Shown here piece after piece: positions 205 to 15,774 of a stretch of 15,774 nt of DNA. The DNA is from a bacterium (GTDB lineage: Bacteria; Patescibacteriota; Patescibacteriia; Patescibacteriales; GWC2-42-12). Location of the stretch: the NCBI GenBank assembly GCA_043807825.1, contig JAZDFM010000026.1, positions 1 through 15,774 of the forward strand, in the 5' to 3' direction. Each line of letters opens with the position of its first letter. The stretch's first letter is position 1. The notes under the pieces are model-generated. The model had not been told where the DNA came from and did not search any database. It was given only the letters and a program-made list of their open reading frames with translations. Made by a program: the position numbers and the translations under genes.

Positions 205-280
205 CGGCTGATTGCGGTGATAAAATAAAACAACTCGCAGTGTTATTTAAAAATAATTTTTTACAATTAAATTTTAACTT

Positions 281-442: not shown

Positions 443-444
443 TT

Positions 445-1209
445 ATGTCAAAAGAAAAATTAAAAATTTGTTTAGAAACATCGACTTATTTGCCGTTAAC
501 TTGGACAACGCCTTATTCGCAGGATGTGATAAATTTGATTCAGTATTACAGAAATGATGCTGATTTTTATATTCAAGATGATTGTTTGCTTGAGGCATTA
601 TCTTATGTCCACTATCAGAAAAATTGGTTCCGTCACGCTTCGGTAAGAATCAAAAAAATAGCTAAAATACTCACCGATAAACAATTAAATGAATTGTCAT
701 TTCCAAGCACAGCATTTCAAATTTTATTAGGCGGTAAAATGTGGGCGCAAGGTTTATATCTAAATTTTGTAAGGCATACAACATTTTTATACGCTGATTT
801 AGTTGATAAGGTTGATTTTTCAGAGAAAAGGAAGGGGCTTTTGCAGTTAGCAGGTTTGGTTGATAAAAGGTTTGAGGATTTACAAAACAAAATTGAGGGG
901 CATCTTGTTGCAAAGGAATTTGAAATAAATTTCAAAGAAATGTTGCCATATTGGGGAAAGTTTTATCTATTTATGGAATTACCAGAACCATTAAAAGTTA
1001 AAGTTTGGAAAATTGAAGAAAAATTCGTGAAAGGACCAGCAAGAATTAGAGATGTTTTCCATTATAAGAGTATGATAGATTCTAGTATGGGTTTTGAAAA
1101 AATGATCGTTGCTAATACCGGATTTTCTGCACATATCAAAAAAGAACTCGGCAGATTAGAAATAGAGCTTTTATGCGCCAAAAGCAGGCAGATGGAAATA
1201 TATGAGTAA
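445..1209 (+). CDS. hypothetical protein (254 aa), no recognisable family
   Basis: Long ORF in an AT-rich stretch with ATG start and TAA stop. Only short shadow ORFs on the opposite strand. I found no catalytic or structural motif I can name. Confidence 0.6.
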   Translation: MSKEKLKICLETSTYLPLTWTTPYSQDVINLIQYYRNDADFYIQDDCLLEALSYVHYQKNWFRHASVRIKKIAKILTDKQLNELSFPSTAFQILLGGKMWAQGLYLNFVRHTTFLYADLVDKVDFSEKRKGLLQLAGLVDKRFEDLQNKIEGHLVAKEFEINFKEMLPYWGKFYLFMELPEPLKVKVWKIEEKFVKGPARIRDVFHYKSMIDSSMGFEKMIVANTGFSAHIKKELGRLEIELLCAKSRQMEIYE

Positions 1210-1296
1210 TAAAAATATTTAATAAATAATAATTTCACGCTACGGTCTCTGTTGCAGGGTAATTTACAAATTTTTAAATTTTTTAACAACAACTCT

Positions 1297-1809
1297 ATGA
1301 CCAAACAATTTAAAATCACATTGGTTATTTTATTGATTGCTTCTGCGGCGCTGTTTTTGGGCAATTATTATTTTCAAAAATGGGTTGATTTCAAAATGGC
1401 CAAAGTGAGCATCGGACTGGCTGAAAGCAAGTTTCCATACAGAGAATATACTCAAGAAGAATTGAACAAGATGTATCCGCAGATACGATACGCCGATGTT
1501 CCCACAAGAACAACGCCGGAACAGACTTACTCCGCGCTGAAACAAGCGTTGAAAAATGAAGATGTGGAAGCGGCTGTAAATTGTTTCATTGAGGAAAAAC
1601 GGGGGGAGTGGAGAGAAAATTTAAAAAAAATAAAAGAAAAAGGATTTATGCAAGAGATGGAACAGGATTTAACTGAATTAAAATTGGAATTAGAGGGAGA
1701 AGCGAGGATGCAATATAGCTATAGTAAAGTCAAAGATGATAAGATTTATGGTTATTATATAGATTTTATAAAAGACATTAACGGCGACTGGAAAATAGAA
1801 AGCCTTTAA
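1297..1809 (+). CDS. N-terminally membrane-anchored hypothetical protein, paralog A
   Basis: I prefer the ATG at 1297 (MTKQFKITLVILLIASAALFLGNYYF, a TM helix right at the N-terminus) over the TTG at 1252. It shares the blocks Y(T)xEEL...P..Y.DVP...TPEQ.Y....QAL.N.D.E.A and a C-terminal DG.W motif with the next ORF. Confidence 0.7.
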   Translation: MTKQFKITLVILLIASAALFLGNYYFQKWVDFKMAKVSIGLAESKFPYREYTQEELNKMYPQIRYADVPTRTTPEQTYSALKQALKNEDVEAAVNCFIEEKRGEWRENLKKIKEKGFMQEMEQDLTELKLELEGEARMQYSYSKVKDDKIYGYYIDFIKDINGDWKIESL

Positions 1810-1899
1810 ATATAGACGCATTCGCGCGAATAAAGAGATTCCTTCCAGCAGAGCGGGACTTAAAATGACAATTTTTAATTAATTATTTTTATAAACCTT

Positions 1900-2367
1900 A
1901 TGCTAAAAAAAATCTTAAAAATTTTCGCAATCTGTTTCGGCCTATTTATTATTTTATATATCTGCTGGTCGGTTTATATAAAAATTCAAATTGATAAGGG
2001 GAATTTGATAAAATGGGATAACAAGTTTTACACCAAAGAAGAATTAAAGCAAGCCTTTCCTCCGCAAGAATACGATGTTCCTGCAAAAAATACTCCGGAA
2101 CAAGTCTACGCGGAATTCAGGCAAGCTTTGCTGAATAATGATATTGAAGGCGCGCTGGCGCAGATTAGGGAGAAGAACAGGGAAGAATACAGACAGGCTT
2201 TTAAAGATAAGGAAAAGTTTGATAAGTGGGTGAAAAGTTTGCCGGAAAAAATAACCGAGGAAAGCGAATTAGGAAATTTTTCTCATTATGATATTGATTA
2301 TGGAACAGAAAATAAAAATACAATTACTTTTATAAAAAACAGCGATGGTTATTGGCAAGTAGATTAG
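1900..2367 (+). CDS. N-terminally membrane-anchored hypothetical protein, paralog B
   Basis: ATG at 1900. TM helix IFAICFGLFIILYICWSVYI. Colinear with ORF 1297-1809 (YTKEELKQAFPPQEYDVPAKNTPEQVYAEFRQALLNNDIEGA, then SDGYWQVD). Confidence 0.7.
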   Translation: MLKKILKIFAICFGLFIILYICWSVYIKIQIDKGNLIKWDNKFYTKEELKQAFPPQEYDVPAKNTPEQVYAEFRQALLNNDIEGALAQIREKNREEYRQAFKDKEKFDKWVKSLPEKITEESELGNFSHYDIDYGTENKNTITFIKNSDGYWQVD

Positions 2368-2392
2368 ATATAATTGAACTGATTATAAAAAC

Positions 2393-5347
2393 ATGCCAAA
2401 CAAAATATTAAAATTATCAATTTCATTGATTTTGGTAATATCCGCTTGCTGTATTTTCAGCTATGACAATTTTACAACTCACCCGTTGCTGTCGGAATCA
2501 GCCGCCGCCGTGTATGGCAAACAAGCTGGCGCTAAATTAACCGATCAGCAAAAACAATGGATTATTAAAGGCTCAATCAATGAAGACATTGATCCGCGCT
2601 ATCTGAATCATTTTTACGATCCGACAACAGGCAAGGGATTGGACGGCTGGGATGTATATAAGAAATTTAACATAAAAGTCAATGGCAAATCAGCCAAACA
2701 ATGGGCGAAAAATCAAGACAGCGCCACTGGAGATTATTCTGAATCCGCGATTTTAAAAAATTATCAGGATGGCGATTTATCCCGCGCTTATCAGGGAATT
2801 GGCCATATTTTGCATTTAATACAGGATATGGCTGTTCCGGCGCATACAAGAAACGATCCGCATTCCGCCGGCGATCCTTATGAAAAATGGGCCGAACAAC
2901 ACGGAGCTATAGATTCAAGCAGATTGAATTTTATAGCTGTGGATAATCTTGATCAGGCTTTTGATAAAATGGCTAATTATTCTCATGATAATTTTTTCAG
3001 TAGAGATACAGTTAATGTTAATAATATAAAAAATTATAAAACAGCTATTGAATTAGTGGATGGTAAAAATAGAATGTATTTATTAAATACAACTGATAAT
3101 TATTTATATAAATTTGCTTATTCAAAAAATCCTGAATGGATTATGCCAGTTTTTCAAGTTGACGATGACCCCTCACTCCACCAAGACTACTGGAACATGC
3201 TTTATCCAAAAGCCGTGGGCTACAGCGCAGGAGCGATAGATTATTTTGTCAAACAATTCGCCAAAATTGATCAAGCTAAAAAAGAACAAGAGCAAATAAG
3301 TTTGTTTGATAAATTAAAAAATTCATTAGTTGGTTTAACCAATGAAGCAAAATATGTTTGGGGCGATGTATATATGGCGCAGAACAAAGTTTTGGCAAGC
3401 GGGTATGATAATATTGTGAAATTGGCTGGTAAAACTAAAAATAGCCTGCAATTTTCATATTCATACGCTAAACCGACCACTGCCCCCGCCCCTCTTCAAA
3501 TCACGGTGCAAGATAAGCCGGCCGGCAGGGTTTTAGCGGCTTCAGAACAGGCTGGACAGGGAGAAAAATTTCAAATCCCCCCTACCCCCTTTAATAAAGG
3601 GGGTGAAAATGCCAAGCCTGTTCAAACCGTGAATGTTCCGGCAGTCAAACAAACAGCGATTGCAAAAACTGTTAATCCTAAAATCCCCCCTGCCCCCTTT
3701 GATAAAGGGGGTGAAATCAAGCCTGAACCTAAAATCCCCCCTACCCACTTTGATAAAGGGGGAGAAGCCCCGGCAATGCATCGCAAAGGCTCTGACAGCC
3801 TGCCTCCGGAAACATCTATTTTATCGGCTCCGAATGCTGTAAGCAGTTCAACATCTGCCTCATTTGTTTTCTCTTCCAATGAAGCTGATTCTTCTTTTGA
3901 ATGCGATTTGGATAATGCCGGATGGCAGGAATGCTTGCCTGCGCAGGCGGGCGGCGTTACCAATTTAAGCAATCTGTCCGAAGGCTCGCATAATCTGAAA
4001 GTTAGAGCGCGGGACTTGTTAAACAATATTGACCAAACACCTGCCGAATATAATTGGATTGTTGACACTGTTGCTCCGATTGTGTCAATAACAAGCTATC
4101 CTCAATCAATTTCAACTTCAACAACCGCGAATTTTCAAATTGATTCAAATGAAAATGAAGCAAGTTTTATCTGCCAATTAGACATGAATCCGTGGCAGGA
4201 ATGCTCGGCAACGACAAGCGCGGCCGATTTGATTGACGGTTGGCATATTATGGAAGCCAAAGGAATTGATATTGCAGGAAACACAAGTTCGTCAACCGCG
4301 ATAACTTGGATTATTGACACCGCGGCTCCGGCATCGTCTGTTTCCGCGTTGCTCGCCGAATATCCATCAACCGGATTTTCCGTAAGCTGGAGCGGAACCG
4401 ATGGACAAGCTTCCACCACCAGCGGTTTGGCTGATTTTGACATTCAGTATAAAATAGGTTCAGGACAATGGCAGAATTGGATTATGGCAACAACCACAAC
4501 CAATGCTGTTTTTGATATTATTGTTAATAACGGCAGTTCTGTTTATTTTCGTTCTAGAGCTTCTGATTCAGCAGGCAATCTGGAAAATTGGCCGGACAAT
4601 GAAAACGGAGACGCAAGCGCGGCGATTGCGTCTTTACCTCCGGCGCAACCCCCGATTGTTTTAAGCGATGTTTCATCGGCATTAAGCAATTGGAAATCGT
4701 CTTTTTCATGGAAGCATACCGTCAATGGGAATGATCCTGTATTGGTGGTGAGTTTGCATGGAGACGGAGATTATCTTAATGACGATGCAGTGACATACGA
4801 TGGCCAAACATTGAGTTTGGCGGTTAAAAAGATTCATGGCGCGTATGACAATAAAGCCGTATTTATGTATTATCTTGCGAATCCGACTCAAGGGGAGCAT
4901 GATATAACCGCTAAAGTATGGGGATTGCCTTTCGCGGCTTCAGCAGCCACATTTTTAAACTGCGATATCTCAGATCCTGTGGGCTTGGCAGATTCATTTT
5001 TTAAATCGCAGTATGATTATGTGCGAACGATTCCTATGCCTGACTATGTTACGATGTCTAATTATGCCACAACAACTATCAACGGAATGATGCTGATTGA
5101 CGCTGTGACTTATGGCAGGTTTGATGATATTTCAGCAGCATCTCCAGGAGAAGGCCAAACGCAATATTTTGAACAAAAGAGTACTCCGCCGGGCGGAGCG
5201 TGGTTTGGACAAACTATTTATGATTATCTTTACGCGGGGCAAAGCTATAAGTTAGTTGAATCGGCCGGTTTGCATTCCATGGATTGGATAACAGACGATC
5301 CTCAATCCGCTGTTCATGTTATTATAGGATTGAATCCGAAGCCGTAA
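2393..5347 (+). CDS. large secreted/lipid-anchored surface protein: zinc phospholipase-C/S1-P1-nuclease-like N-domain, repeat-derived linker, tandem Ig-like/Fn3-like modules, unknown C-terminal domain
   Basis: 984-aa ORF. Signal peptide with a lipobox-like LVISAC. NHFYDP and GHILHLIQDMAVPAHTRNDPH resemble the His/Asp metal-ligand blocks of the Zn-dependent PLC/P1 nuclease fold. Two about 85-aa repeats (..SASFVFSSNEADSSFECDLDNAGWQEC..WIVDTVAP and ..TANFQIDSNENEASFICQLDMNPWQEC..WIIDTAAP, roughly 3803-4330) are followed by an Fn3-like module (FDIQYKIGSGQWQNW). Confidence 0.85.
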   Translation: MPNKILKLSISLILVISACCIFSYDNFTTHPLLSESAAAVYGKQAGAKLTDQQKQWIIKGSINEDIDPRYLNHFYDPTTGKGLDGWDVYKKFNIKVNGKSAKQWAKNQDSATGDYSESAILKNYQDGDLSRAYQGIGHILHLIQDMAVPAHTRNDPHSAGDPYEKWAEQHGAIDSSRLNFIAVDNLDQAFDKMANYSHDNFFSRDTVNVNNIKNYKTAIELVDGKNRMYLLNTTDNYLYKFAYSKNPEWIMPVFQVDDDPSLHQDYWNMLYPKAVGYSAGAIDYFVKQFAKIDQAKKEQEQISLFDKLKNSLVGLTNEAKYVWGDVYMAQNKVLASGYDNIVKLAGKTKNSLQFSYSYAKPTTAPAPLQITVQDKPAGRVLAASEQAGQGEKFQIPPTPFNKGGENAKPVQTVNVPAVKQTAIAKTVNPKIPPAPFDKGGEIKPEPKIPPTHFDKGGEAPAMHRKGSDSLPPETSILSAPNAVSSSTSASFVFSSNEADSSFECDLDNAGWQECLPAQAGGVTNLSNLSEGSHNLKVRARDLLNNIDQTPAEYNWIVDTVAPIVSITSYPQSISTSTTANFQIDSNENEASFICQLDMNPWQECSATTSAADLIDGWHIMEAKGIDIAGNTSSSTAITWIIDTAAPASSVSALLAEYPSTGFSVSWSGTDGQASTTSGLADFDIQYKIGSGQWQNWIMATTTTNAVFDIIVNNGSSVYFRSRASDSAGNLENWPDNENGDASAAIASLPPAQPPIVLSDVSSALSNWKSSFSWKHTVNGNDPVLVVSLHGDGDYLNDDAVTYDGQTLSLAVKKIHGAYDNKAVFMYYLANPTQGEHDITAKVWGLPFAASAATFLNCDISDPVGLADSFFKSQYDYVRTIPMPDYVTMSNYATTTINGMMLIDAVTYGRFDDISAASPGEGQTQYFEQKSTPPGGAWFGQTIYDYLYAGQSYKLVESAGLHSMDWITDDPQSAVHVIIGLNPKP
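3573..3610 (+). repeat. KGG-type miniature palindromic element, copy 1 (in-frame, encodes IPPTPFNKGGE)
   Basis: aaatcccccctaccccctttaataaagggggtgaaaat. Perfect 8-bp stem CCCCCTTT (3585-3592) / AAAGGGGG (3596-3603) with a 3-nt loop. Confidence 0.85.
3680..3717 (+). repeat. KGG-type miniature palindromic element, copy 2 (in-frame, encodes IPPAPFDKGGE)
   Basis: aaaatcccccctgccccctttgataaagggggtgaaat. Stem 3693-3700 / 3704-3711. Starts 108 nt after copy 1, a multiple of 3. Confidence 0.85.
3731..3767 (+). repeat. KGG-type miniature palindromic element, copy 3, slightly degenerate (encodes IPPTHFDKGGE)
   Basis: aaaatcccccctacccactttgataaagggggagaag. One stem mismatch (CCCACTTT). Starts 51 nt after copy 2, a multiple of 3. 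Confidence 0.8.
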
Positions 5348-5357
5348 GCGTATAAAA

Positions 5358-5900
5358 ATGGAAAAACAAAACAATAAAATAAATAATTCAGGCGGTTTTA
5401 CGATGATAGAGCTGTTAGCGGGCATTTTTATAATTGCCGTGATGAGCGGTTTTTTTATCGTTAATTACCATAACACGAACAAACGATCTGAATTGGGAGT
5501 TATCAAACAAAAATTGGCGTCAAACATAAGATTGGCGCAAAATTACAGTTTGGGATCAAAAACTTATGACGGAATCAACACCCCGGCCGGCGGATGGGGA
5601 GTTCATTTCAGCCTGTCGGATCCGAGCCATTATATAATTTTCGCGGATAAAAATTTGCCTAATGGAGATAAAACATATAACGCCGGCGAAGCCGTGGAAA
5701 CCGTATCTTTGCCTGACGGAATAACCATAAATTCCTTAAGCCCGGCGAATTCGGTTGATATTGTTTTTTTTCCGCCCGATCCGGTAACATATATTAACGG
5801 ATCAGGCAGTTCGCCGGCTAAAATAACTTTAAAAGAAAACATCAATAATTCAACCGCCGAAATTTCAGTTAATTTTTTCGGTTTGATTGACGCGAATTAA
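5358..5900 (+). CDS. type IV pilin-like / pseudopilin protein (GspH/FimT-like minor pilin)
   Basis: Prepilin class III leader and N-methylation motif: NNSGG|FTMIELLAGIFIIAVMSG, with Glu at +5. Starts 11 nt after the stop of the large surface-protein gene. Confidence 0.8.
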   Translation: MEKQNNKINNSGGFTMIELLAGIFIIAVMSGFFIVNYHNTNKRSELGVIKQKLASNIRLAQNYSLGSKTYDGINTPAGGWGVHFSLSDPSHYIIFADKNLPNGDKTYNAGEAVETVSLPDGITINSLSPANSVDIVFFPPDPVTYINGSGSSPAKITLKENINNSTAEISVNFFGLIDAN

Positions 5901-5901
5901 A

Positions 5902-6414
5902 ATGAAAATGAAAGTAATTTCAAATAATTCGGGAATAAGCATATTGGAAGTGATTGCCGCGGTCGCCATAATCGCCATAGGCATGGTCGGAGTTTTGTCG
6001 CTGGTAATTCAGAATGTTGAAGCGCAATATATAAATAAAAATATTTTAATGGCTTCCGGATTGGCGCAGGAAGGTTTGGAAATCGTCAGGAATATCAGGG
6101 ACGCCAATTGGCTGATTGAAGGCAACTTATGGAAACAAAATATAGTCGGAGACGGAACTTACACCGTAAGCTATGCCGGAATTTCAAGCGTTAACATGGC
6201 CGTAAATTCAATAAACGAAGCCGGCGCCAGATTGTATGTTGACGGCAACGGGCTTTATACCAATTCAGTTACGGCATCGGCGACGAATTTTTATCGCCTG
6301 ATAACTATTGTTGACAATGGAGATTATTTGGATGTGAAATGCGTTATCCGATGGGCCGACGGAACGCAAAACCATAATTACGCGGCTGAAACCTATTTAT
6401 ACGATTGGCGATAA
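5902..6414 (+). CDS. type IV minor pilin-like protein (PilV/GspI-like)
   Basis: I prefer the ATG at 5902, 2 nt after the upstream stop, over the TTG at 5887. Motif NNSG|ISILEVIAAVAIIAIGMVGVL with Glu+5. Confidence 0.75.
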   Translation: MKMKVISNNSGISILEVIAAVAIIAIGMVGVLSLVIQNVEAQYINKNILMASGLAQEGLEIVRNIRDANWLIEGNLWKQNIVGDGTYTVSYAGISSVNMAVNSINEAGARLYVDGNGLYTNSVTASATNFYRLITIVDNGDYLDVKCVIRWADGTQNHNYAAETYLYDWR

Positions 6415-6416
6415 AT

Positions 6417-6986
6417 ATGATATTATTATTCAAAAAAATAAAAGATAACAGAGGAGTGAGCTTGATAGAATTGGTTGTTTCAATTGCGATTTTTTCGGTT
6501 TTGATATTATCATCAACGCAAATATTCAAAATGGTCGTTGACGGCCAAAGAGGAGCCGTAAGCGCGCAAAATGTCCAGGATAGCATAAGATACGCCATGG
6601 AAAAAATAAGCAAAGAAATCAGAATGGCTCAAATCAGCAATGCTTCATGCTATGGCGCGGCTGTTTACAAAGTTTTCAATCCGGCGAACGGCGGAACGGA
6701 ATTGTATTTAAAAAACAAAGACGGCAATTGCGTAAATTATTATTTGGAAAACAACCGGCTGAAAATAATGTCCGGAACCGGCGCCGGAGCCATCGCCGAT
6801 TTCATAACTCCTGCCAAAATTGAAGTGAGCAATTTGAAATTTTATGTTAACGACGACTTGATTGGATCTTTCCACAGCAAACAGCCTTATGTAACCATGG
6901 CAATGGATATTAAAGCGGCCGGTCAGGCGATGCACGAGCAGAGAATGAAAATTCAAATGACTATTTCTTCAAGATATTATGAATAA
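6417..6986 (+). CDS. type IV minor pilin-like protein (PilW/GspJ-like)
   Basis: I prefer the ATG at 6417, 3 nt after the upstream stop, over the TTG at 6405. Motif DNRG|VSLIELVVSIAIFSVLIL with Glu+5. Confidence 0.7.
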   Translation: MILLFKKIKDNRGVSLIELVVSIAIFSVLILSSTQIFKMVVDGQRGAVSAQNVQDSIRYAMEKISKEIRMAQISNASCYGAAVYKVFNPANGGTELYLKNKDGNCVNYYLENNRLKIMSGTGAGAIADFITPAKIEVSNLKFYVNDDLIGSFHSKQPYVTMAMDIKAAGQAMHEQRMKIQMTISSRYYE

Positions 6987-7356
6987 TAATAACAAAAATC
7001 AAGAAGGCGTGATTTTGCTTTTAACCATGTTTATTTTGTCCGGAATTTTAATAGTTTCATTAGCCGCGGCTGATTTGATTTTTTTGGGAATAAGAATGAA
7101 CCGCCTTACAGGCTATTCCAATATCGCTTTTTTCGCTTCCGAGGCGGGCATGGAGCGGGCGCTGTGGGAGGCCAGAAAAAACGGCTATGTCCTTCCGAGC
7201 TCAAGCCAAAATAATATTTTTGAAAGTTTGAATATAGGGAATTCAAGCGCGTACCATGTGAATTACGCCACTTCCACTCCGGATGTTTTTTTGAAATCAA
7301 TCGGAGATTATTTGGGAGTTAAAAGATCGGTTGAAACTGTTTATCAGACGCAATAA
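6979..7356 (+). CDS. PilX-like minor pilin / pilus assembly protein
   Basis: The ATG overlaps the upstream stop (ATGAATAA, 8-nt overlap). The N-terminus NQEGVILLLTMFILSGILIVSLAAA is a hydrophobic pilin-like helix lacking Glu+5, as in PilX-type N-domains. Confidence 0.6.
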   Translation: MNNNNKNQEGVILLLTMFILSGILIVSLAAADLIFLGIRMNRLTGYSNIAFFASEAGMERALWEARKNGYVLPSSSQNNIFESLNIGNSSAYHVNYATSTPDVFLKSIGDYLGVKRSVETVYQTQ

Positions 7357-7360
7357 ATAG

Positions 7361-9457
<2,097 letters not shown>

Positions 9458-9474
9458 TTACGCATAATAAAAAC

Positions 9475-9768
9475 ATGAATTTGTCTAAAGACGAAATAAA
9501 GCATATCGCCAAATTGGCCAGGCTGGAATTGACTGACGCCGAATTGGAAAAATACGGCGGACAGCTGTCGGCTGTTTTGAATTATATAGATCAATTAAAA
9601 GAAGTTGATGTAAAAGGAATTGAGCCTATGGCGCAGGCTTCATGCTTGGAAAATGTTTTGCGGGAAGATGAAATAAAAAATTGGGATGAGCAAGAAATTG
9701 AAGAAGCTCTAGCCGGAGCGCCGGAAAGGGAAGGCGGGTTTATAAAAGTTAAAAGAGTGATTGAATAA
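9475..9768 (+). CDS. gatC: Asp/Glu-tRNA(Asn/Gln) amidotransferase subunit C
   Basis: 97 aa. IKHIAKLARLELTDAELEKYGGQLSAVLNYIDQLKEVDVKGIEP is the canonical GatC pattern. It sits directly upstream of gatA. Confidence 0.9.
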   Translation: MNLSKDEIKHIAKLARLELTDAELEKYGGQLSAVLNYIDQLKEVDVKGIEPMAQASCLENVLREDEIKNWDEQEIEEALAGAPEREGGFIKVKRVIE

Positions 9769-9779
9769 AAATATTATAT

Positions 9780-9848
9780 TGTCATCCTCGCGAAAGCGGG
9801 GATCCATTCAGATTTTAAATCTGGATTCCCGCCTGCGCGGGAATGACA
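9780..9848. repeat. 69-bp nested inverted-repeat (REP/MITE-like) element in the gatC-gatA spacer
   Basis: tgtcatcctcgcgaaagcggggatcca...ctggattcccgcctgcgcgggaatgaca. The arms match at about 22 of 27 positions when one is reverse-complemented. Each arm also folds on its own (CTCGC-GAAA-GCGGG and CCCGC-CTGC-GCGGG). In the gatA frame it reads SSSRKRGS..LDSRLRGNDK. Confidence 0.8.
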
Positions 9849-9856
9849 AATTAAAT

Positions 9857-11320
9857 ATGACATTAAATCAATTAACAATAGCTGAAGCTATAAAAAAGCT
9901 TGATAAAAAAGAAATCACCTCGGTTGAACTTGCCAAGGCGTGTTTGACGCGCGTAAAAAATATTGACGGAAAAATCAAGGCGTGTCTGGCGGTTTGCGAA
10001 GAACAGGCGATGAAAGACGCGGAAAAAGCCGATGAGCGGCGCGCTCAAGGCGAAACTGGAGAATTGCTCGGCATCCCGTATTTTGCCAAAGATAATATTT
10101 TGACTCGCGGCGTAAAAACCACGGCTGCTTCCAAAATTTTGGAAAATTACATCGCGCCTTATGACGCGTCTATTATAAAAAAATTAAAGCGAGCCGGCGC
10201 GGTTCTTTTGGGAAAAACCAATTTGGATGAATTCGCCCATGGGGCTTCAACTGAAAATTCCGCTTTTGGGACGACGCGCAATCCATGGGATTTGTCCCGC
10301 GTTCCCGGGGGTTCTTCCGGCGGGTCGGCCGCCGCGGTCGCGGCTGATATGTGTTTGTTCGCTTTGGGAACGGATACCGGAGGCTCAATCAGATGCCCGG
10401 CAAGTTTTTGCGGAGTCGTCGGCATGAAGCCGACTTATGGCAGAAGCTCCCGCTTCGGCTTGATCGCGATGACAAGCTCAACCGATGTTCCCGGGCCTTT
10501 GGCGAAAACCGTGGGAGACGCCGCGATGATCTTGTCCGCTATCGCGGGAAAAGACGGGAATGATGGGACAACAGTTAAAATCCCCCTTACCCCCTTTGTT
10601 AAAGGGGGTAAAATGCAAGGCTTAACTATCGGCTTGCCTGAAGAATATTTTGTTGAAGGTGCGGAAAAAGGCGTGGAGCAAGCGGTGGAAAAAGCCATTG
10701 AAGATTTGAAAAAACTTGGCGTTAAGTTTAAAAAAGTGAGCCTGCCGCATACGAAATACGGCGTGCCTGCTTACTATATCATCACTCCTTCGGAAATAAG
10801 CTCAAATTTGGCAAGATTTGACGGCATTAAATACGGTTTAAGCATAAACGGCGAAGAAAAGATAAAAGCGGATTTGGCGGATGTCTACGCCAAAAGCCGA
10901 GGAAAAGGCTTTGGTGCCGAAGCCAAACGGAGAATTATGCTCGGAACTTACGCTTTGAGCGCCGGTTATTTTGACGCGTATTATCTGCAGGCGCAAAAAG
11001 TGAGAGTTAAGATAAAACAGGAATTTGACGAAGTTCTGAAGCAAGTTGACTGCCTGCTTACGCCGACCGCTCCGCATGTCGCTTTTAAAATCGGCGAGCA
11101 GTCAGGCGATCCTTTAAAAATGTATCTTGAAGATATTTTCGTTACCGGCGCGTCTTTGGCCGGGTTGCCAGCGATTTCCATTCCATGCGGTTTCAGCCGC
11201 GGCATGCCTGTAGGACTTCAACTGATTGGCAGGCATTTTAATGAAGACTTGCTGTTTAAAATAGGCAATGGTTATGAACAAGCAACGGAATGGCATTTGA
11301 AAAAAGCCGAAATTGTTTAA
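9857..11320 (+). CDS. gatA: Asp/Glu-tRNA(Asn/Gln) amidotransferase subunit A
   Basis: Start placed at ATG 9857 (MTLNQLTIAEAIKKLDKKEITSVEL, a typical GatA N-terminus). Amidase signature GGSSGGSAAAVAA and DTGGSIR. The ORF-track start at 9761 only adds translation of the intergenic repeat. Confidence 0.93.
   Translation: MTLNQLTIAEAIKKLDKKEITSVELAKACLTRVKNIDGKIKACLAVCEEQAMKDAEKADERRAQGETGELLGIPYFAKDNILTRGVKTTAASKILENYIAPYDASIIKKLKRAGAVLLGKTNLDEFAHGASTENSAFGTTRNPWDLSRVPGGSSGGSAAAVAADMCLFALGTDTGGSIRCPASFCGVVGMKPTYGRSSRFGLIAMTSSTDVPGPLAKTVGDAAMILSAIAGKDGNDGTTVKIPLTPFVKGGKMQGLTIGLPEEYFVEGAEKGVEQAVEKAIEDLKKLGVKFKKVSLPHTKYGVPAYYIITPSEISSNLARFDGIKYGLSINGEEKIKADLADVYAKSRGKGFGAEAKRRIMLGTYALSAGYFDAYYLQAQKVRVKIKQEFDEVLKQVDCLLTPTAPHVAFKIGEQSGDPLKMYLEDIFVTGASLAGLPAISIPCGFSRGMPVGLQLIGRHFNEDLLFKIGNGYEQATEWHLKKAEIV
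10577..10614 (+). repeat. KGG-type miniature palindromic element, copy 4, in-frame inside gatA (encodes IPLTPFVKGGK)
   Basis: aaaatcccccttaccccctttgttaaagggggtaaaat. Stem 10590-10597 / 10601-10608. Same strand and same codon phase as the three copies in the surface-protein gene. Confidence 0.85.
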
Positions 11321-11349
11321 TTTTAATTTTTACGCTATAATAGCGAGTA

Positions 11350-11772
11350 ATGAATAAAAAAGATTTAAAAATAATCGGGGCGATGCTTTATGTATGCGAA
11401 GGCACTAAAGCAAGAATTGACAGGAGATATAATAGATTGCTTTATTCTGTTGAATTAACTAATTCAGACCCTAAAATTATAAAAATTTTTAGATTATTTC
11501 TTGATAACATAATAAAAATTGATAAAAATCGCATAAGAGGGCAATTATTTTTTTATCCGGATTTGAATGAAAAAAGATTGATAAATTTTTGGTCAAAAAT
11601 ATCTTCTATCCCATTTTCACAATTTAATAAAAGCATATGTTTAAAAGCGAAAAATGGTAAATTTAAAGCAAATCCTTTGGGGACATTTAAAATAAGGTAT
11701 AGTTGCAAAAAGGATTTTTTAAAAATACAAAAAATGATAGATGATGTTTGGAGAGATGCAAGAGTGGCTTAA
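11350..11772 (+). CDS. hypothetical protein, possible single-motif LAGLIDADG-like homing endonuclease
   Basis: 140-aa AT-rich ORF. The N-terminal IIGAMLYVCEGTK fits the hhGhhh.(D/E)G pattern of LAGLIDADG motifs, and the size is compatible with homodimeric enzymes. This assignment is weak. The last 23 nt overlap tRNA-Ser. Confidence 0.45.
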   Translation: MNKKDLKIIGAMLYVCEGTKARIDRRYNRLLYSVELTNSDPKIIKIFRLFLDNIIKIDKNRIRGQLFFYPDLNEKRLINFWSKISSIPFSQFNKSICLKAKNGKFKANPLGTFKIRYSCKKDFLKIQKMIDDVWRDARVA

Positions 11773-11837
11773 TTGGCAGTCCTGGAAAGACTGTATACCG
11801 CAAGGTATCCAGGGTTCGAATCCCTGTCTCTCCGCCA
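11750..11837 (+). tRNA. tRNA-Ser (anticodon GGA), class II with long variable arm, CCA encoded
   Basis: Folded by hand. Acceptor GGAGAGA/TCTCTCC. 3-bp D stem (CAA/TTG). Anticodon stem CAGTC/GACTG with loop CTGGAAA. Variable arm ATACC-GCAA-GGTAT. T arm CAGGG-TTCGAAT-CCCTG. Discriminator G, then CCA. Confidence 0.9.
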
Positions 11838-11881
11838 GATTTCCAAGTTTGAACCGAAGTAAGATAAGGGGTTTTGGACAA

Positions 11882-11906
11882 AAAAGCTGGGCACCACCCA
11901 GCTTTT
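11882..11906. terminator. intrinsic (potentially bidirectional) terminator downstream of tRNA-Ser
   Basis: AAAAGCTGGG-cacca-CCCAGCTTTT. The GC-containing stem AGCTGGG/CCCAGCT has a 5-nt loop and is flanked by an A-tract upstream and a T-tract downstream. Confidence 0.6.
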
Positions 11907-11923
11907 AAGTTTTGTGCAGTTGT

Positions 11924-11968
11924 TTGCTATATGGCAATTTGGAATATAACACAATGGAATAATATAAT
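11924..11968 (+). promoter_or_regulatory. candidate promoter and C-box-like operator for the controller-protein/endonuclease operon
   Basis: TTGGAA (11939-11944), 18-nt spacer, TATAAT (11963-11968). The -10 ends only 8 nt before the ATG at 11977, implying a leaderless or near-leaderless mRNA. An imperfect palindrome TTGCTATATGGCAA (11924-11937, 12/14 symmetric) abuts the -35. Confidence 0.4.
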
Positions 11969-11976
11969 ATCAACAT

Positions 11977-12198
11977 ATGCCGAGAGCAATATATACAAAA
12001 GATCATAACGCAATCGTTGAACGCTTGAAGACAGCTCGTATTGAGGCTGGACTTGGGCAGGTTGAAGTTGCAAAGAAACTCGGAAAAACTCAATCTTATC
12101 TTTCAAAAATTGAATCAGGGCAAAGACGATTTGATGTATTACAGTTGAAAGAATTTGCAAAGATTTATAATAAATCATTAGACTATTTTGTTAAATAA
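11977..12198 (+). CDS. XRE-family helix-turn-helix protein, likely R-M controller (C) protein
   Basis: 73 aa. RLKTARIEAGLGQVEVAKKLGKTQSYLSKIESGQRRFDVLQL is the classic HTH_3 pattern (Q..lA...g.s...is..E.G.r). Its stop is 3 nt before the next ORF. Confidence 0.8.
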   Translation: MPRAIYTKDHNAIVERLKTARIEAGLGQVEVAKKLGKTQSYLSKIESGQRRFDVLQLKEFAKIYNKSLDYFVK

Positions 12199-12201
12199 TT
12201 T

Positions 12202-12897
12202 ATGTTAGTACAAAAATTCGATAATTTTCTACAATCAGTTGACCTAAAATCCTATCGGGATAAATATAGACCTATTAAAATTGTGGAAATGGATTTACCA
12301 AAAGAGATCCAAGCTATAAACTTACTCTACAAAATATATTGGAACAAGAAAGAGTTCTTGAGTTTTGAAAAATTTTATGAAGAATACCTAAAAGAGTATG
12401 GGGCTGATATTAAAAAATTTCAAGAAAAGACTGGGATGTGCGAGAAGTGTTTTAGTAAAGGATTGCCCGCGAGAATTTATAGAACATGGGCAAGCATTAT
12501 TACTCAGATACATGCTGGCTATGTAGCGGAGTCGGTTTTCGGTGTTGGTACAGTTTCAATGTCAGGGGAGCTTGATCATCAAGGGGCTGATTTTCAAATT
12601 CTGTATAAAGGAAAAATTCTAAATTATCAAGTAAAAAAGAAATCATTCAGTGGTGAGGTAAGACGCGGTAAAGGCGGAGTTAAAACTAAAATAGCTGGCG
12701 AATTTATTGATATTAATTACGAAGTTCCAAGTAGTGATTACTTCGAAAATCCAAAGAAAAAAGACGGTGAGTATAAACTTCCGTACAAAAGATTTCAAGA
12801 TAACAAGGAATTAAAAAGATTTTCAAATGGTTTTGTAGTTTTTACTTCTTACGCTTTTGAACAAAAGAAAAAAGAGATTGATGTAAACTTAAAATAA
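12202..12897 (+). CDS. candidate type II restriction endonuclease (PD-(D/E)xK-like), otherwise hypothetical
   Basis: 231 aa. Placement follows the usual C-then-R operon order, convergent with a methyltransferase. ELDHQGADFQILYKGKILNYQVKKK can be read as E...D-x13-QxK on alternating hydrophobic strands. I recognise no specific REase family, so the functional call rests mainly on context. Confidence 0.45.
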   Translation: MLVQKFDNFLQSVDLKSYRDKYRPIKIVEMDLPKEIQAINLLYKIYWNKKEFLSFEKFYEEYLKEYGADIKKFQEKTGMCEKCFSKGLPARIYRTWASIITQIHAGYVAESVFGVGTVSMSGELDHQGADFQILYKGKILNYQVKKKSFSGEVRRGKGGVKTKIAGEFIDINYEVPSSDYFENPKKKDGEYKLPYKRFQDNKELKRFSNGFVVFTSYAFEQKKKEIDVNLK

Positions 12898-14415
12898 TTT
12901 AGGAATAACTGTTACGGAAGAAATAGTTTTTTCGGCAATTTTTATATAATCAGGATTAATTTCAAACCCGATATAATTTTGACTCAACTCTTTTGCGGCT
13001 GCACATTCAGCCCCTGTTCCGACAAAGGGAACCAAAACCACTCCATCTTTTTTAGGCATGGCTGATTTTATTAATTTTCTGCAAATTTCTAATGGCTTTT
13101 GTGTTGGGTGTTTAACTATCTCGTGATCAGCGTGTTTTTTTAGTTCTCTTGGCTCAAAAACATTTCTTCCACAGGTATTACAGATAAACCATCTTTCATT
13201 CATACCGGCTCCTCCGGCTAATGCTGGTATTTTTATTACATCTCTTGGCAAGGCACCACCCTCGTGTGCCTTATAAACAGTTTCTTGACCGTTTGTACTG
13301 TATCGTCCAATTGTTCCTTTGCGTATTTTCCCAGCCGCTCCATTTAAAAAACCCTCAGTGTACGGCTCTCTTACTTCGTCACGATTAAAAACTGGGCTAT
13401 TTTTCCAAGCACAAATTATAGATTCATGGCTTCGTTGCCAAAAATTTAGAGAAGCAACATTTTTGTTTGTGTAATGCCAAATAAGCCACCTTTTACTTAT
13501 CGGTATTTCAACCGAAAGATAAGCAAGAATTTCGCTAAAACCATAAATAAACATTGTGCCGGTTGGTTTTAAGACTCTAATAGATTCATCTATCCAACTT
13601 TTTGACCAACGAATGTACTCGTTCATTTCTCGTTTATCCATGTTATTACCAAAATCTTTGCCGATATTATATGGTGGATCAATTATAATAACATCACAAC
13701 ATTCATCTGGTAATTTTCTTAATTCTTCAACTGCGTCATTTAAAATAATTTGATTGAGTGGTAATTTATTATTTCGTTTAATATTTTTTGATGTAATCAA
13801 CTCTTCTACAAAATTATTTTCATCGTTTTTTATTACATCAATTACAATACCCTGTATTGTTAGCGGAGTTTGTTTGGAAATAATTATGGGATCCATTGTT
13901 CTGTTGGCTGGCTGAAGTCTAATATGTCCTCTTTCCTTGTAAAACTTTTTTAATGTGGTTTCATAATTATCAATCAACGCTACAATCTTTTGTCCATTTT
14001 CGGCAGTATCTTGTTGTTTAACTAACACGACATCACCATCATTAATATTCTCTTCGATCATGCTGTTACCAATAACTCTTAATGCATAAAAATTGCCGTG
14101 GCTCGGTAATTTGCTCTGTGGTACAGCAACGATTTCTTTTTCTTTAATTGCTTCGATTGGTTGCCCGGCTGCAATATTCCCCATAAGCGGAATATTTATC
14201 ATTTTTTCACTCTCAAAAACAGAAATTGCTCTTGGCTGGTTATCTTCTTTTCTTAAAAAACCTTTTTCTTGAAGTTTTTTAATATGAAAATGGGCAGTAG
14301 AAACAGAAGCTATTTTTAGATGTTTCTTAATTTCTTCAAGAGAAGGGGCATATTTATGCTTGGAATAATATTGTTTTATAAAATCCAAGACATCTTTTTG
14401 TTTTTTAGTAAGCAT
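12889..14415 (-). CDS. LexA-like repressor/autoprotease fused to a beta-class (DPPY) N6-adenine/N4-cytosine DNA methyltransferase
   Basis: I prefer the ATG at 14415 (MLTKKQKDVLDFI, a typical LexA N-terminus) over the TTG at 14430. LexA part: wHTH, then Ala83-Gly84 in IAAGQPIEA, Ser118 in GNSM, Lys156 in TLKKF. MTase part: IIIDPPYN (13669-13680), HPTQKP, and a C-terminal VPFVGTGAE...GFEINPDY (motif IV before motif I, which defines the beta class). The stop overlaps the convergent ORF by 9 nt. Confidence 0.85.
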   Translation of the reverse strand: MLTKKQKDVLDFIKQYYSKHKYAPSLEEIKKHLKIASVSTAHFHIKKLQEKGFLRKEDNQPRAISVFESEKMINIPLMGNIAAGQPIEAIKEKEIVAVPQSKLPSHGNFYALRVIGNSMIEENINDGDVVLVKQQDTAENGQKIVALIDNYETTLKKFYKERGHIRLQPANRTMDPIIISKQTPLTIQGIVIDVIKNDENNFVEELITSKNIKRNNKLPLNQIILNDAVEELRKLPDECCDVIIIDPPYNIGKDFGNNMDKREMNEYIRWSKSWIDESIRVLKPTGTMFIYGFSEILAYLSVEIPISKRWLIWHYTNKNVASLNFWQRSHESIICAWKNSPVFNRDEVREPYTEGFLNGAAGKIRKGTIGRYSTNGQETVYKAHEGGALPRDVIKIPALAGGAGMNERWFICNTCGRNVFEPRELKKHADHEIVKHPTQKPLEICRKLIKSAMPKKDGVVLVPFVGTGAECAAAKELSQNYIGFEINPDYIKIAEKTISSVTVIPKLF

Positions 14416-14419
14416 ATTA

Positions 14420-14481
14420 TTGACAGACAATTTTTGTTAGGTGTATAATAGTATTATAGAAAATAAATAGAAAACTTACAA
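14420..14481. promoter_or_regulatory. overlapping divergent promoter pair with palindromic and phased-repeat candidate operator
   Basis: Plus strand: TTGACA (14420-14425), 18-nt spacer, TATAAT (14444-14449). Minus strand: TTGTAA (complement of 14476-14481), 17-nt spacer, TATAAT (complement of 14453-14458). The two -10 boxes form the palindrome TATAATAgTATTATA (14444-14458). ATAGAAAA occurs twice, 11 bp apart (14456-14463 and 14467-14474). Confidence 0.5.
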
Positions 14482-14503
14482 TAGCCCACTTATCCACAAC
14501 TGC

Positions 14504-15475
14504 ATGCCAAAATCATTTTTTTCAGAAAAAATAGATTTAATAATGAAATCTAGGGAGGCCATGCTTTCTGCTGTTCAGATTTATAATAATCCACTGATTT
14601 TATTTAAAACAGAATCTTTTATTGTCCTTTCTTTAATTGCATGGACTTATCTTTTGCATTCGCACTACAGAGCGATCGGGGTTGATTACAGATATTTTGA
14701 AAAAAATGGTTCCCGAAAAAGATTTATTAAAAATCCTGACGGAAGTATAAAATATTGGGATCTTAAGGAATGTATTTCAAAAGAATTTTGTCCGCTAGAT
14801 AAAGATACGAATAATAATCTTTCATTTTTAATTGGTTTAAGAAATCAAATAGAACATCGTAAGGCAAGCGGATTAGATTCTTGTCTCTCAGCTCGCTATC
14901 AGGCCCGTGCTTTAAATTTGAATTTTTATCTTAAAAAATTGCATGGTGAAAAATACGGACTTGATAATAACTTGGCATTAAGCTTGCAGTTTTCAGAATT
15001 AGACGATTCGCAATCAAAGATATTAAAAGATAAAGAATCCTTAATACCTCAAAATATTATTTCTTATCTTGCTGATTTTGATAGTAAGTTATCGGAAAGC
15101 GAAATAAAAAGCGATCGTTTTGCATACCGTCTTTTATTTACTAAGGTTTTAGCAAAAAGGAAGGGGCAAGCCGATCGCGTTATTGAGTTCATAGATCCAA
15201 AGTCTGATTTAGCAAAGAATATTTCTAAAGAATATTGGATCAAAGAAGAAACAGAAAAGCCAAAATTTTCAGCCACTCAGACAATTCAAAAGGTAAGAGA
15301 AGCAGGATATAAAAATTTTAGTATGCATCAGCACACGCAATTTTGGCAAAAACATGATGGAAAAAATCCAAATAAGGGATTCGGTTCAATGATTGTCAAA
15401 ACTTGGTGTTGGTATCAAAATTGGGCGGATTATATTATTAGCGAATTAAACAAGATAAAAAAAATAATTATTTAA
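14504..15475 (+). CDS. DUF3644-like protein with HEPN-type Rx4H motif (candidate RNase / abortive-infection effector)
   Basis: 323 aa. The N-terminal AVQIYNNP...ESFIVLSLIAWTYLLHS resembles the DUF3644 pattern as I remember it. LIGLRNQIEHR (R113 at 14840-14842, H118 at 14855-14857) matches the HEPN R-N-x-x-x-H signature seen in AbiD/AbiF-type proteins. Confidence 0.55.
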   Translation: MPKSFFSEKIDLIMKSREAMLSAVQIYNNPLILFKTESFIVLSLIAWTYLLHSHYRAIGVDYRYFEKNGSRKRFIKNPDGSIKYWDLKECISKEFCPLDKDTNNNLSFLIGLRNQIEHRKASGLDSCLSARYQARALNLNFYLKKLHGEKYGLDNNLALSLQFSELDDSQSKILKDKESLIPQNIISYLADFDSKLSESEIKSDRFAYRLLFTKVLAKRKGQADRVIEFIDPKSDLAKNISKEYWIKEETEKPKFSATQTIQKVREAGYKNFSMHQHTQFWQKHDGKNPNKGFGSMIVKTWCWYQNWADYIISELNKIKKIII

Positions 15476-15641
15476 TCGAATAATCAACCTCATTTTTGCC
15501 CCTGTTGGACTCTGGGCGAGGTGTTTCAAACCATTCCGGATGAACCTTGAAGATACGCCTTAATTCCTGTATGCTTTTATCAATATCCTTGAATTTGAGC
15601 CGCTTTTTCGGTTCAAACTTCGGGACATCGTCCCCGCCAAT
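15468..15641 (-). pseudogene. possible start-less gene remnant (57 codons)
   Basis: Hand translation of the minus strand: IGGDDVPKFEPKKRLKFKDIDKSIQELRRIFKVHPEWFETPRPESNRGKNEVDYSIK*. It is bounded upstream by TAA and has no ATG/GTG/TTG start. Composition is protein-like, and the region is more GC-rich than the island beside it. Confidence 0.2.
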
Positions 15642-15678
15642 TTACAGTTTCTCAAAAATATTTTAAAATATAAAGAAC

Positions 15679-15774
15679 ATGAAGTTTAAAAACAAAGGTT
15701 TTACTATAATAGAATTAATGGTAGTAGTAGCCATTATCGGCATCTTAACTGCTCTTATAACTATTTCTTTTTCT
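15679..15774 (+). CDS. type IV pilin (prepilin) N-terminal fragment, continues beyond the window
   Basis: MKFKNKG|FTIIELMVVVAIIGILTALITISFS. Canonical class III leader, with Phe+1 and Glu+5 followed by a hydrophobic helix. Confidence 0.8.
   Translation, partial: MKFKNKGFTIIELMVVVAIIGILTALITISFS

Follow-up and report, generated by a model that had tools for sequence, protein, structure and literature searches.

A complete LexA repressor joined to the methyltransferase of a TaqI-family restriction-modification system in Patescibacteria

A stretch of 15,774 nucleotides (positions 1 to 15,774 of contig JAZDFM010000026.1, GenBank assembly GCA_043807825.1; hereafter, the window) from a bacterium of the patescibacterial lineage GWC2-42-12 was analyzed, with emphasis on a gene at 12889-14415 of the minus strand. 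The gene is a single unbroken open reading frame (ORF) that encodes, from the ATG at 14415, a protein of 508 amino acids (aa), a genuine single polypeptide that consists of a complete LexA, a linker and a beta-class N6-adenine DNA methyltransferase (MTase). An earlier reading made from the letters alone (the sequence-only reading) had described one unbroken minus-strand ORF with this content, in agreement with our ORF call and Pfam assignments; the profile hidden Markov model comparison that it had called for places LexA_DNA_bind, Peptidase_S24 and N6_N4_Mtase on one polypeptide. The sole other in-frame start is a TTG at 14430, and homologues open with MLTK or MITK at the position of the ATG. 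On the evidence of its neighbours, the fusion is the predicted methylase (M) subunit of a TaqI-family Type II restriction-modification (R-M) system. We consider it reasonably probable that the protein is an autorepressed methylase that would be derepressed by self-cleavage induced by activated RecA (RecA*), with a neighbouring defence gene being induced at the same time. Conservation was assessed on three alignments, A1 (19 homologues), A2 (47 diverse fusions) and A3 (46 close homologues). The features of the fusion are the following.

12889..14415, minus strand: LexA-MTase fusion gene, one ORF with three Pfam domains (GenBank MFH1255178.1).
14227..14412, minus strand: LexA winged helix-turn-helix (HTH) DNA-binding domain, residues 2-63, with the recognition helix SVSTAHFHIKKL (Pfam LexA_DNA_bind, 4.5e-17).
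13840..14190, minus strand: Peptidase_S24 self-cleavage and dimerisation domain, residues 76-192 (Pfam, 7.8e-29; aligns with 3k2z and 1jhh).
14164..14169, minus strand: predicted scissile Ala83-Gly84, invariant in A1, A2 and A3 and aligned with the Ala-Gly of Thermotoga maritima and Escherichia coli LexA.
14062..14064, minus strand: Ser118, the predicted nucleophile, in GNSM; invariant in A1, A2 and A3.
13948..13950, minus strand: Lys156, the predicted general base, in TLKKF; invariant in A1, A2 and A3.
13696..13839, minus strand: Asn/Lys/Glu-rich linker and N-terminal lead-in of the MTase, residues 193-240, between the Pfam envelopes and weakly conserved in A1.
12928..13695, minus strand: beta-class N6-adenine MTase domain, residues 241-496 (Pfam N6_N4_Mtase, 2.9e-37, model positions 2-221 of 221).
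13669-13680, minus strand: MTase motif IV, DPPY, residues 246-249, preceding motif I; invariant.
13012-13026, minus strand: MTase motif I, FxGxG (FVGTG), residues 464-468; invariant.

The N-terminal 197 residues reach 189.3 bits against the lexA equivalog model TIGR00498, above its cutoff of 110.95, and the LexA half can be aligned over its full length with LexA structures from T. maritima (3k2z; 4e-35) and E. coli (1jhh). Ala83-Gly84, Ser118 and Lys156 share alignment columns with A84-G85, S119 and K156 of E. coli LexA, and the matches to the PDB structures agree with this alignment. The cleavage site and the Ser/Lys dyad, for which the sequence-only reading had given arithmetically correct coordinates, are thus truly aligned with LexA in the three alignments and against the structures. 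The cleavage-site loop and the active-site motifs of the S24 domain also match those of cleavable LexA structures. The invariance of Ala-Gly, Ser and Lys, maintained even in 47 fusions of about 30-40% identity that carry unrelated MTases, points to selection on cleavage and not on dimerisation alone, and the S24 domain is likely to be competent for cleavage.

The C-terminal half displays motif IV ahead of motif I, which is the order of the beta-class amino-MTases; this order, together with the Pfam envelopes, upholds the short linker followed by a beta-class enzyme that had been proposed. Its nearest solved structures are 8urk, M.RsrI, M.MboIIA and CcrM, with best matches from 6e-31 to 1e-17, and PADLOC labels the fusion protein MTase_II. 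In the AlphaFold model, the LexA half has a predicted local distance difference test (pLDDT) score of about 80-89 (winged HTH, about 85), and residues 199-226 of the linker fall below 50. The LexA half is, therefore, modelled as confidently folded and the linker as flexible or disordered. Because the alignment is shallow, the MTase half is modelled poorly (residues 302-406 below 50; mean pLDDT of the whole, 62); the model is good for the LexA half only, and hence no conclusion is drawn on domain packing. Just ahead of HPTQKP, a CxxC-x12-HxxH motif (C412, C415, H428 and H431; residues 412-431; 13123-13182) is invariant in 46 homologues and may be an insert that binds zinc, within or close to the target-recognition region.

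Among 5.8 billion proteins searched, more than 120 clusters at 90% identity have this set of three domains, each of about 507 aa and 71-96% identical to the query, from independent NCBI, JGI, ENA and Logan assemblies; the cluster of the window protein itself has 25 members. These numbers bear on the possibility that a frameshift, introduced in sequencing or assembly, turned adjacent lexA and MTase genes into one. The lineage does contain unfused lexA-MTase operons in which the two genes are 4-36 nt apart (loci L127 and L130), and one indel could fuse them. However, the more than 120 clusters from independent projects keep the same frame and length, and the reading frame runs on through the linker, which is flanked by conserved residues. 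The clusters and the 25 members of the protein's own cluster exclude a frameshift or a chimeric assembly in practice, and we regard such an artefact as exceedingly improbable.

The named hosts of the fusions are Patescibacteria (Kuenenbacteria, Paceibacterota, Minisyncoccales, Shapirobacteria, Nomurabacteria, Parcubacteria and Saccharibacteria), so that the database check proposed by the sequence-only reading reveals the same architecture across Patescibacteria. The architecture stands as first described, but the rarity implied for it does not: the family is very abundant in Patescibacteria and is already in GenBank under half-annotations. Source annotations read either 'transcriptional repressor LexA' or 'site-specific DNA-methyltransferase', never the two together, and the window protein is deposited (MFH1255178.1) as 'MAG: transcriptional repressor LexA [bacterium]', MAG denoting a metagenome-assembled genome. 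Full-text searches of the literature yielded no account of a methyltransferase fused to LexA, nor of R-M systems under LexA control, and the study of Sanchez-Osuna, Barbe and Erill (2017, Environ Microbiol 19:3465) may mention the fusion. Both halves belong to known families with public sequences; what is new is their combination, as a variant of LexA and of the autoregulatory methylases, with a new regulatory logic. A phage origin was considered and is not supported, since a viral-contig scan gave no relative. Some genes of the patescibacterial type, with their promoters, lie on contigs that are labelled otherwise (L014 and L015, Gammaproteobacteria; P0063, Pacearchaeota; P0276, Bacilli; L012, Omnitrophica); these labels are probably due to mis-binning, with horizontal transfer as the alternative.

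The sequence-only reading had considered a single methylase. The fusion itself is as described, but its scope is wider, with LexA joined to all the main MTase classes. Among 47 LexA-bearing representatives of clusters at 50% identity (307-890 aa), all with LexA_DNA_bind and S24, the MTase belongs to N6_N4_Mtase in 31, Eco57I in seven (five of them also N6_Mtase), D12 in five and C5 in three. Genomic loci of 10 kb on either side of each gene were fetched (1.27 Mb in total; loci are designated L and a number). The LexA modules closest to that of the window (46-80% identity) are almost all fused to something. Their partners include C5 cytosine methylases (L013, L027 and L134), D12/Dam-type enzymes (L080, L133 and L138), a gamma-type N6_Mtase/Eco57I enzyme (L131), permuted N6_N4 enzymes (L012, L124, L149 and L156) and several other beta-class subtypes. 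In nearly every fusion a convergent ORF begins at the stop codon of the fusion, and those that can be recognised are restriction enzymes, of the Bsp6I, MvaI/BcnI and R.PabI families besides TaqI. A complete LexA is, on sequence grounds, fused to or directly upstream of MTases of four Pfam groups in this clade, beside at least four endonuclease families.

Stand-alone lexA genes of the clade show a related arrangement. Two of the three (L127 and L130) are followed by a same-strand MTase gene within 4-36 nt, and in the third (L128) the contig ends at the gene. When genes of the candidate phyla radiation type were sought by LexA similarity alone, about 14 fused and 3 unfused were found among the matches listed; these fused and unfused counts are samples and not a census. 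No second LexA was found in any fetched locus, and the loci contained no recA or repair-gene promoters. In L130, the gene at 1368-3887, which lies 4 nt after the unfused lexA, encodes an 839-aa protein with C5 and Eco57I/N6-type methylase parts, behind which a 395-aa ORF of no known family converges.

The two halves of the fusions appear from pairwise comparisons to have different histories. The LexA parts of L098 and L119 are 80% identical while their MTases are unalignable, and, conversely, the MTases of L085 and L087 are 83% identical with LexA parts of only 53% identity. The same pair of methylase and endonuclease is also found without LexA: the N-terminus is bare in DPANN archaea (L009 and L010), and LexA-less relatives of the MTase have an HTH_17 module in L095 and a C2H2 finger in L097. 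These pairs with other N-terminal modules suggest that LexA is an exchangeable N-terminal module of the methylase, and the HTH_17 and C2H2 N-termini fit with a regulatory module at this position. In L095 (3600-3760), the HTH_17 module, which is of the excisionase type, takes the place of LexA, and the elements TGTGGATAA and a degenerate TTTACTTTCTT are still present upstream; the region looks like the remnant of a lexA promoter, and LexA may have been replaced in situ.

The region between the fusion and its upstream neighbour in the window contains the following predicted elements.

14457..14474, minus strand: predicted LexA operator TTTTCTA-ttta-TTTTCTA (TTTTCTAtttaTTTTCTA; TTTCTA-N5-TTTCTA), an 11-bp tandem direct repeat found by motif comparison.
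14453..14481, minus strand: fusion promoter, with -35 TTGTAA (14476-14481), a 17-nt spacer filled by the operator and -10 TATAAT (14453-14458); promoter scan 10/12.
14490..14498, minus strand: DnaA-box consensus TGTGGATAA (plus strand TTATCCACA) just upstream of the -35 box, an exact 9-mer.
14420..14449, plus strand: divergent back-to-back promoter TTGACA-18-TATAAT; promoter scan 12/12.
14504..15475, plus strand: divergent neighbour, DUF3644 (Pfam, 6e-52), candidate defence gene PDC-S19 of PADLOC (6.7e-127).

The operator repeat occurs once in the window. A direct repeat of the form TTCKD-N6-TTCKD, with an 11-bp period, precedes 39 of 42 fusion genes irrespective of the class of MTase, and two of the three promoters that lack it have an ATCGG variant. 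The background of this pattern is 0.2 per kb, equivalent to about 0.03 expected per promoter. The repeat lies nearly always within the -35/-10 spacer, abutting the -10 box, the geometry of the fusion promoter recurs across loci, and unfused lexA genes of the clade carry the same repeat upstream. A passage of a later paper from the Erill laboratory cites the 2017 Patescibacteria study among cases in which LexA evolved recognition of direct repeats. The palindromic LexA box of the Gram-positive/Thermotoga type, GAAC-N4-GTTC, gave five matches in the window with one mismatch allowed against 3.7 expected, none of them in the promoter, and was set aside for the direct repeat. A palindrome at 14444-14458, TATAATAcTATTATA, was also considered as the operator and is accounted for by the opposed -10 boxes of the back-to-back promoters.

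The half-sites of the repeat covary with the recognition helix of LexA. TTCTA or TTCGA half-sites are paired with helices of the form ST-x-H/D-[F/Y/H] in 31 of 31 cases, and TTCGG or TTCGT half-sites with ST-x-H/Y-[Q/E] in 21 of 21; the residue at the covarying position in the window is F43. Each of four MTase families contains both half-site types, so that the half-site is not tied to the MTase. The covariation supports direct read-out of the repeat by the LexA module, and, as it follows the helix and not the MTase, suggests that LexA and the promoter form one evolutionary unit and the MTase and the endonuclease (R) another. Autorepression of the fusion through this repeat is very likely on the strength of these patterns.

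The DnaA-box 9-mer is exact in 22 of the 42 fusion promoters, and 26 of its 39 copies in the fetched loci lie within 170 nt upstream of the start codon of a lexA or fusion gene. In L114, the 10-mer TGTGGATAAC forms tandem repeats in the dnaA-dnaN intergenic region (3483-3503) and is found again upstream of dnaA (5139); TGTGGATAAC is, on account of the repeats, very probably the DnaA box of these organisms. To our knowledge, a DnaA input into lexA expression has not been described. In L114 (regions 1691-2143 and 2254-5039), a distance of about 0.6 kb separates the LexA-MTase gene from dnaN and dnaA, which places it beside the probable replication origin, and the convergent ORF that follows it belongs to the Endonuclease VII family (1.9e-17) and is not a classical restriction enzyme.

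The -10 box of the divergent promoter abuts that of the M promoter, and transcription is predicted to start near 14456, so that the operator would span about +1 to +18 of the divergent transcript. Back-to-back promoters are present in at least ten other loci, and this geometry explains the conserved 'GTCAA' that lies 15-25 nt ahead of the start codon in most fusions. In 35 of 38 scorable loci, the fusion has a divergently transcribed gene upstream, and about half of the approximately 21 pairs that are no more than 200 nt apart include a recognisable defence gene. PDC-S19 occupies the same position in L027 (1039-1989), beside a C5-MTase fusion on a Saccharibacteria contig. Oligonucleotide cyclases of the cyclic oligonucleotide-based antiphage signalling system (CBASS) are divergent from the fusion in L003 and L124, and a cyclase of the pyrimidine cyclase system for antiphage resistance (Pycsar) in L123. 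In L163, this side is occupied by a HEPN protein and, after it, a protein with a PycTM domain, and the remaining neighbours comprise a GmrSD/NsnA-like protein (L112), a KAP NTPase (L113), DUF3800/PDC-M04A (L138) and ShosA (L092). DUF3644 was considered as a constant partner and recurs in one other locus only, L027; the conserved feature is, therefore, a divergent and often defensive gene and not DUF3644 itself.

The sequence-only reading had placed the methylase, and a promoter shared with its neighbour, under the control of DNA damage. The sharing applies to PDC-S19, whose divergent promoter extends across the operator, but not to the restriction gene, which converges on the fusion at its 3' end and has its own controller protein. 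The coupling to damage appears considerably stronger than when it was first proposed, given the predicted operator in the gene's own promoter, the covariation with the helix and the position of the PDC-S19 promoter.

On the other side of the fusion lie the remaining components of the R-M cassette and the left border of the defence segment.

12202..12897, plus strand: TaqI-family Type II endonuclease R, 231 aa (Pfam RE_TaqI, 8e-36; PADLOC REase_II).
11977..12198, plus strand: controller (C) protein, HTH_3, 73 aa (Pfam, 1e-14), 3 nt upstream of R.
11925..11976, plus strand: C-R promoter TTGGAA-18-TATAAT (11939-11968) with a C-box-like repeat, from the promoter scan.
11882-11906: terminator after tRNA-Ser(GGA), from the terminator scan.
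11750..11837, plus strand: tRNA-Ser(GGA), left border of the defence segment (ARAGORN).

R is convergent with the fusion gene, with an overlap of 9 bp at the 3' ends, and a convergent TaqI-family R gene is present in nearly all close relatives. The C gene is found in some relatives only, many being without it. The -10 box of the C-R promoter ends 8 nt ahead of the ATG, which would make the C-R mRNA near-leaderless. C-box-like repeats upstream of C genes are conserved in eight loci, as putative C-boxes recognised by sequence only, and no LexA-type repeat was found upstream of C or R in the window or in the eight C-gene loci. TCGA occurs seven times in the window against 31.4 expected (observed/expected, 0.22); four of the seven copies are within the cassette, and only one is found across 11 kb of left-hand housekeeping sequence. 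The TaqI-family partner and this depletion indicate that TCGA is probably the target of the system. As a separate observation, ACGT is absent from the window (1-15774; about 18 expected from trinucleotide frequencies), which suggests that this genome is subject to a second R-M system, one specific for ACGT; low values were likewise obtained for GGCC (observed/expected, 0.60) and CTAG (0.47).

The window and L163, whose fusion protein is 76% identical, share the order gatC-gatA-small ORF-gap-R-M. The cassette therefore occupies a stable chromosomal site in the sub-lineage, while the defence gene on the promoter side varies. The small ORF of the window (11350-11772) encodes 140 aa without a family match and sits between gatA and tRNA-Ser, sharing the initial 23 nt of the tRNA gene; its positional counterpart in L163 (12639-13151) encodes 170 aa. 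Further to the left in the window, 2393-6986 contains a gene for a 984-aa protein, which gave Big_13/Ig-like matches and weak zinc-phospholipase-C ones, and, downstream of it, three genes for proteins with a type IV pilin-like N-terminal methylation motif. The pilin-like genes may belong to a pilus or competence apparatus. As a matter of speculation, the uptake of single-stranded DNA (ssDNA) through such an apparatus, if it activated RecA, could bear on the LexA module.

Based on these results, the following mechanism can be envisaged. The fusion would dimerise via its S24 domain and bind the tandem repeat TTTCTA-N5-TTTCTA in its own -35/-10 spacer. In the bound state it would keep methylase synthesis at a set-point, as methylases of the SsoII type with an N-terminal HTH repress themselves, and would also block the back-to-back promoter of the neighbouring defence gene, PDC-S19 in the window. 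RecA-ssDNA filaments, formed upon DNA damage, upon self-restriction at unmethylated sites or from phage or other incoming ssDNA, would stimulate the S24 domain to cut at Ala83-Gly84. The cut would free a DNA-binding fragment of 83 residues ending in ...NIAA and leave the S24-methylase, and both promoters would be derepressed, with more methylase and an induced defence gene as a result. R would not be raised together with M, as it has no LexA box, is under C control and would be read in antisense by the convergent M transcript. Such a feedback would protect the chromosome when self-restriction or repair synthesis produces unmethylated sites, as a Type II analogue of restriction alleviation, and the DnaA box beside the operator would probably add an input from replication status.

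Confidence in the final step of this mechanism is lower than in autorepression: whether the net outcome is more methylase is close to an even matter, leaning slightly against. Several considerations weigh against the account as a whole. The covariation between helix and half-site is confounded by shared ancestry, since a few LexA clades with inherited promoters would amount to few independent changes and to inflated counts. By analogy with E. coli, where both LexA fragments are degraded, the SOS response could lower methylase activity. The antisense effect of M transcription on R is pure conjecture. Finally, unfused lexA genes of this lineage have the same operator, and the fusion may be a general SOS repressor without a logic specific to R-M.

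The last of these points can be developed into an explanation centred on the host, in which the fusion is the housekeeping SOS repressor and R-M cassettes were repeatedly inserted at, or fused to, the 3' end of lexA. The methylase would be a passenger that gains a regulated promoter, and perhaps protection against loss, and has no specific role in the control of restriction. Unfused lexA genes indeed share the promoter module, with its DnaA box, repeat and back-to-back promoter, and the LexA half scores above the cutoff of the lexA equivalog model. The discordance between LexA and MTase in L098/L119 and L085/L087 is what would be expected of a resident lexA with swapped cassettes; no locus yielded a second LexA, unfused lexA is scarce among the matches listed (about 14 fused to 3 unfused), and the locus is syntenic between the window and its 76%-identical relative. 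However, an accidental passenger would not be expected to recur with four MTase Pfam groups and to remain the prevailing form in at least 47 clusters at 50% identity. Even unfused lexA genes are followed by an MTase gene within 4-36 nt, which argues for a selected functional coupling, and the near-universal coupling to MTases in the clade is left unexplained. We judge this explanation rather unlikely, and it overlaps, and is largely compatible with, the damage-responsive autorepressed methylase favoured here.

The fate of the cleaved protein is also relevant to a different outcome. In E. coli, the cleavage fragments of LexA are degraded by ClpXP and Lon, the ...VAA end of the DNA-binding fragment being a ClpXP degron. 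If cleavage of the fusion exposed degrons in a comparable manner, the S24-methylase would be degraded, methylation capacity would collapse once the cell was infected by phage or badly damaged, and the endonuclease, being stable, would kill it as in post-segregational killing, in what amounts to a suicide (abortive-infection) switch. The new C-terminus of the fusion, ...NIAA, resembles that degron, and the loci lie among genes of the abortive-infection type such as CBASS and Pycsar. R-M systems also behave as modules akin to toxin-antitoxin pairs, in which an R/M imbalance induces the SOS response and death (PMC3874152). By contrast, existing methyl groups would persist, so that killing would need replication; cleavage would derepress the same polypeptide and steadily supply new methylase; the ...IAA degron sits on the DNA-binding fragment and not on the methylase fragment; and host death at each SOS episode would be costly in tiny genomes in which the system is near-universal. 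These arguments make such a switch improbable. Less probable still is that the S24 domain serves as a non-cleaving dimerisation module, in a constitutive autorepressor-methylase of the M.SsoII kind without a damage input. LexA requires S24 dimerisation to bind DNA, and non-cleaving S24 repressors are known, but nearby positions vary whereas Ala-Gly, Ser and Lys do not change in any of the 46 close and 47 distant fusions, and the cleavage loop and active-site motifs are those of cleavable LexA.

A comparison with known systems locates the fusion between several of them. It shares with LexA (TIGR00498; 1JHH and 3K2Z) the winged HTH, the S24 domain with Ala-Gly and Ser/Lys, and an operator in its own promoter. 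In contrast to LexA, it continues after S24 into an MTase of about 300 aa, its predicted operator is a direct repeat with an 11-bp period instead of a palindrome, and its promoter adds a DnaA box and a divergent promoter. The MTase half has the motif order IV (DPPY)...X...I (FxGxG) of M.RsrI, M.MboIIA, CcrM and 8URK, which lack a LexA N-terminus and differ from the fusion with its conserved CxxC...HxxH insert before HPTQKP.

In its regulation the fusion resembles, at the level of architecture, the M.SsoII, M.Ecl18kI, M.EcoRII and M.MspI type, in which an N-terminal DNA-binding module on M has its operator over the enzyme's own promoter; the repression of their own promoters by methylases with an N-terminal HTH is established (PMC3874152). 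Divergent promoters compete in Ecl18kI in a similar way. The SsoII-type modules are, however, small HTHs without protease or signal input, on C5 methylases with R divergent, whereas the fusion has a whole LexA on an N6-adenine beta-class enzyme, a convergent and C-controlled R and a divergent defence gene. It works, as far as its layout tells, like the SsoII/Ecl18kI family without being a member of it. The 73-aa HTH_3 gene before R, the C-box-like repeat and the near-leaderless promoter recall the C-protein R-M systems PvuII, AhdI and Esp1396I; M is constitutive or regulated by C or by methylation in the known systems, whereas here it would have a LexA-based control of its own.

The proposed shift from restriction to modification, with protection of new unmethylated DNA, is analogous to the restriction alleviation of Type I systems, where ClpXP degrades HsdR after damage, but would proceed by transcriptional derepression of M through self-cleavage and not by proteolysis of R. 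We know of no Type II counterpart that has been described. Similarities also exist with CapH/CapP of CBASS and BrxR/WYL of the bacteriophage exclusion system (BREX), in which the repressor next to a defence operon loses its activity through proteolysis or upon a damage signal, so that the defence genes are induced, and CBASS and Pycsar cyclases are among the divergent neighbours of the fusions. CapH is cut by a separate metalloprotease, CapP, whereas the repressor of the fusion would be a self-cleaving LexA joined to the methylase.

A broader reading, which we put forward as tentative and doubtful in its full extent, regards canonical lexA as a control hub of immunity in a large part of the Patescibacteria. 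The fusion would be the only LexA of the cell; it would integrate replication status, through the DnaA box, with DNA damage or phage ssDNA, through RecA*-induced self-cleavage, determine the methylation capacity available to the R-M cassette attached to it and fire CBASS, Pycsar, PDC-S19, Shosta or GmrSD-like neighbours from the shared bidirectional promoter.

R-M systems require a balance between methylase and endonuclease. An SOS sensor within the methylase polypeptide would be a direct and testable answer to the open question of how Type II systems deal with DNA damage and repair synthesis. Thousands of database entries tagged only 'LexA' or only 'methyltransferase' are mis-described. Knowledge of these R-M systems and of their induction would help to make Patescibacteria genetically tractable, and the fusion proteins could supply damage-inducible methylation switches. 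In a major uncultivated radiation, LexA, usually regarded as a stand-alone global repressor, appears to have become a modular regulatory domain at the N-terminus of all the main classes of DNA methylase. CBASS, Pycsar or other defence genes are often placed under the shared bidirectional promoter, which points to DNA damage as a general trigger of immunity in organisms largely without CRISPR. If the broader reading holds true, it would describe an SOS-immunity circuit that extends across the lineage and the first mechanism of restriction alleviation for Type II systems.

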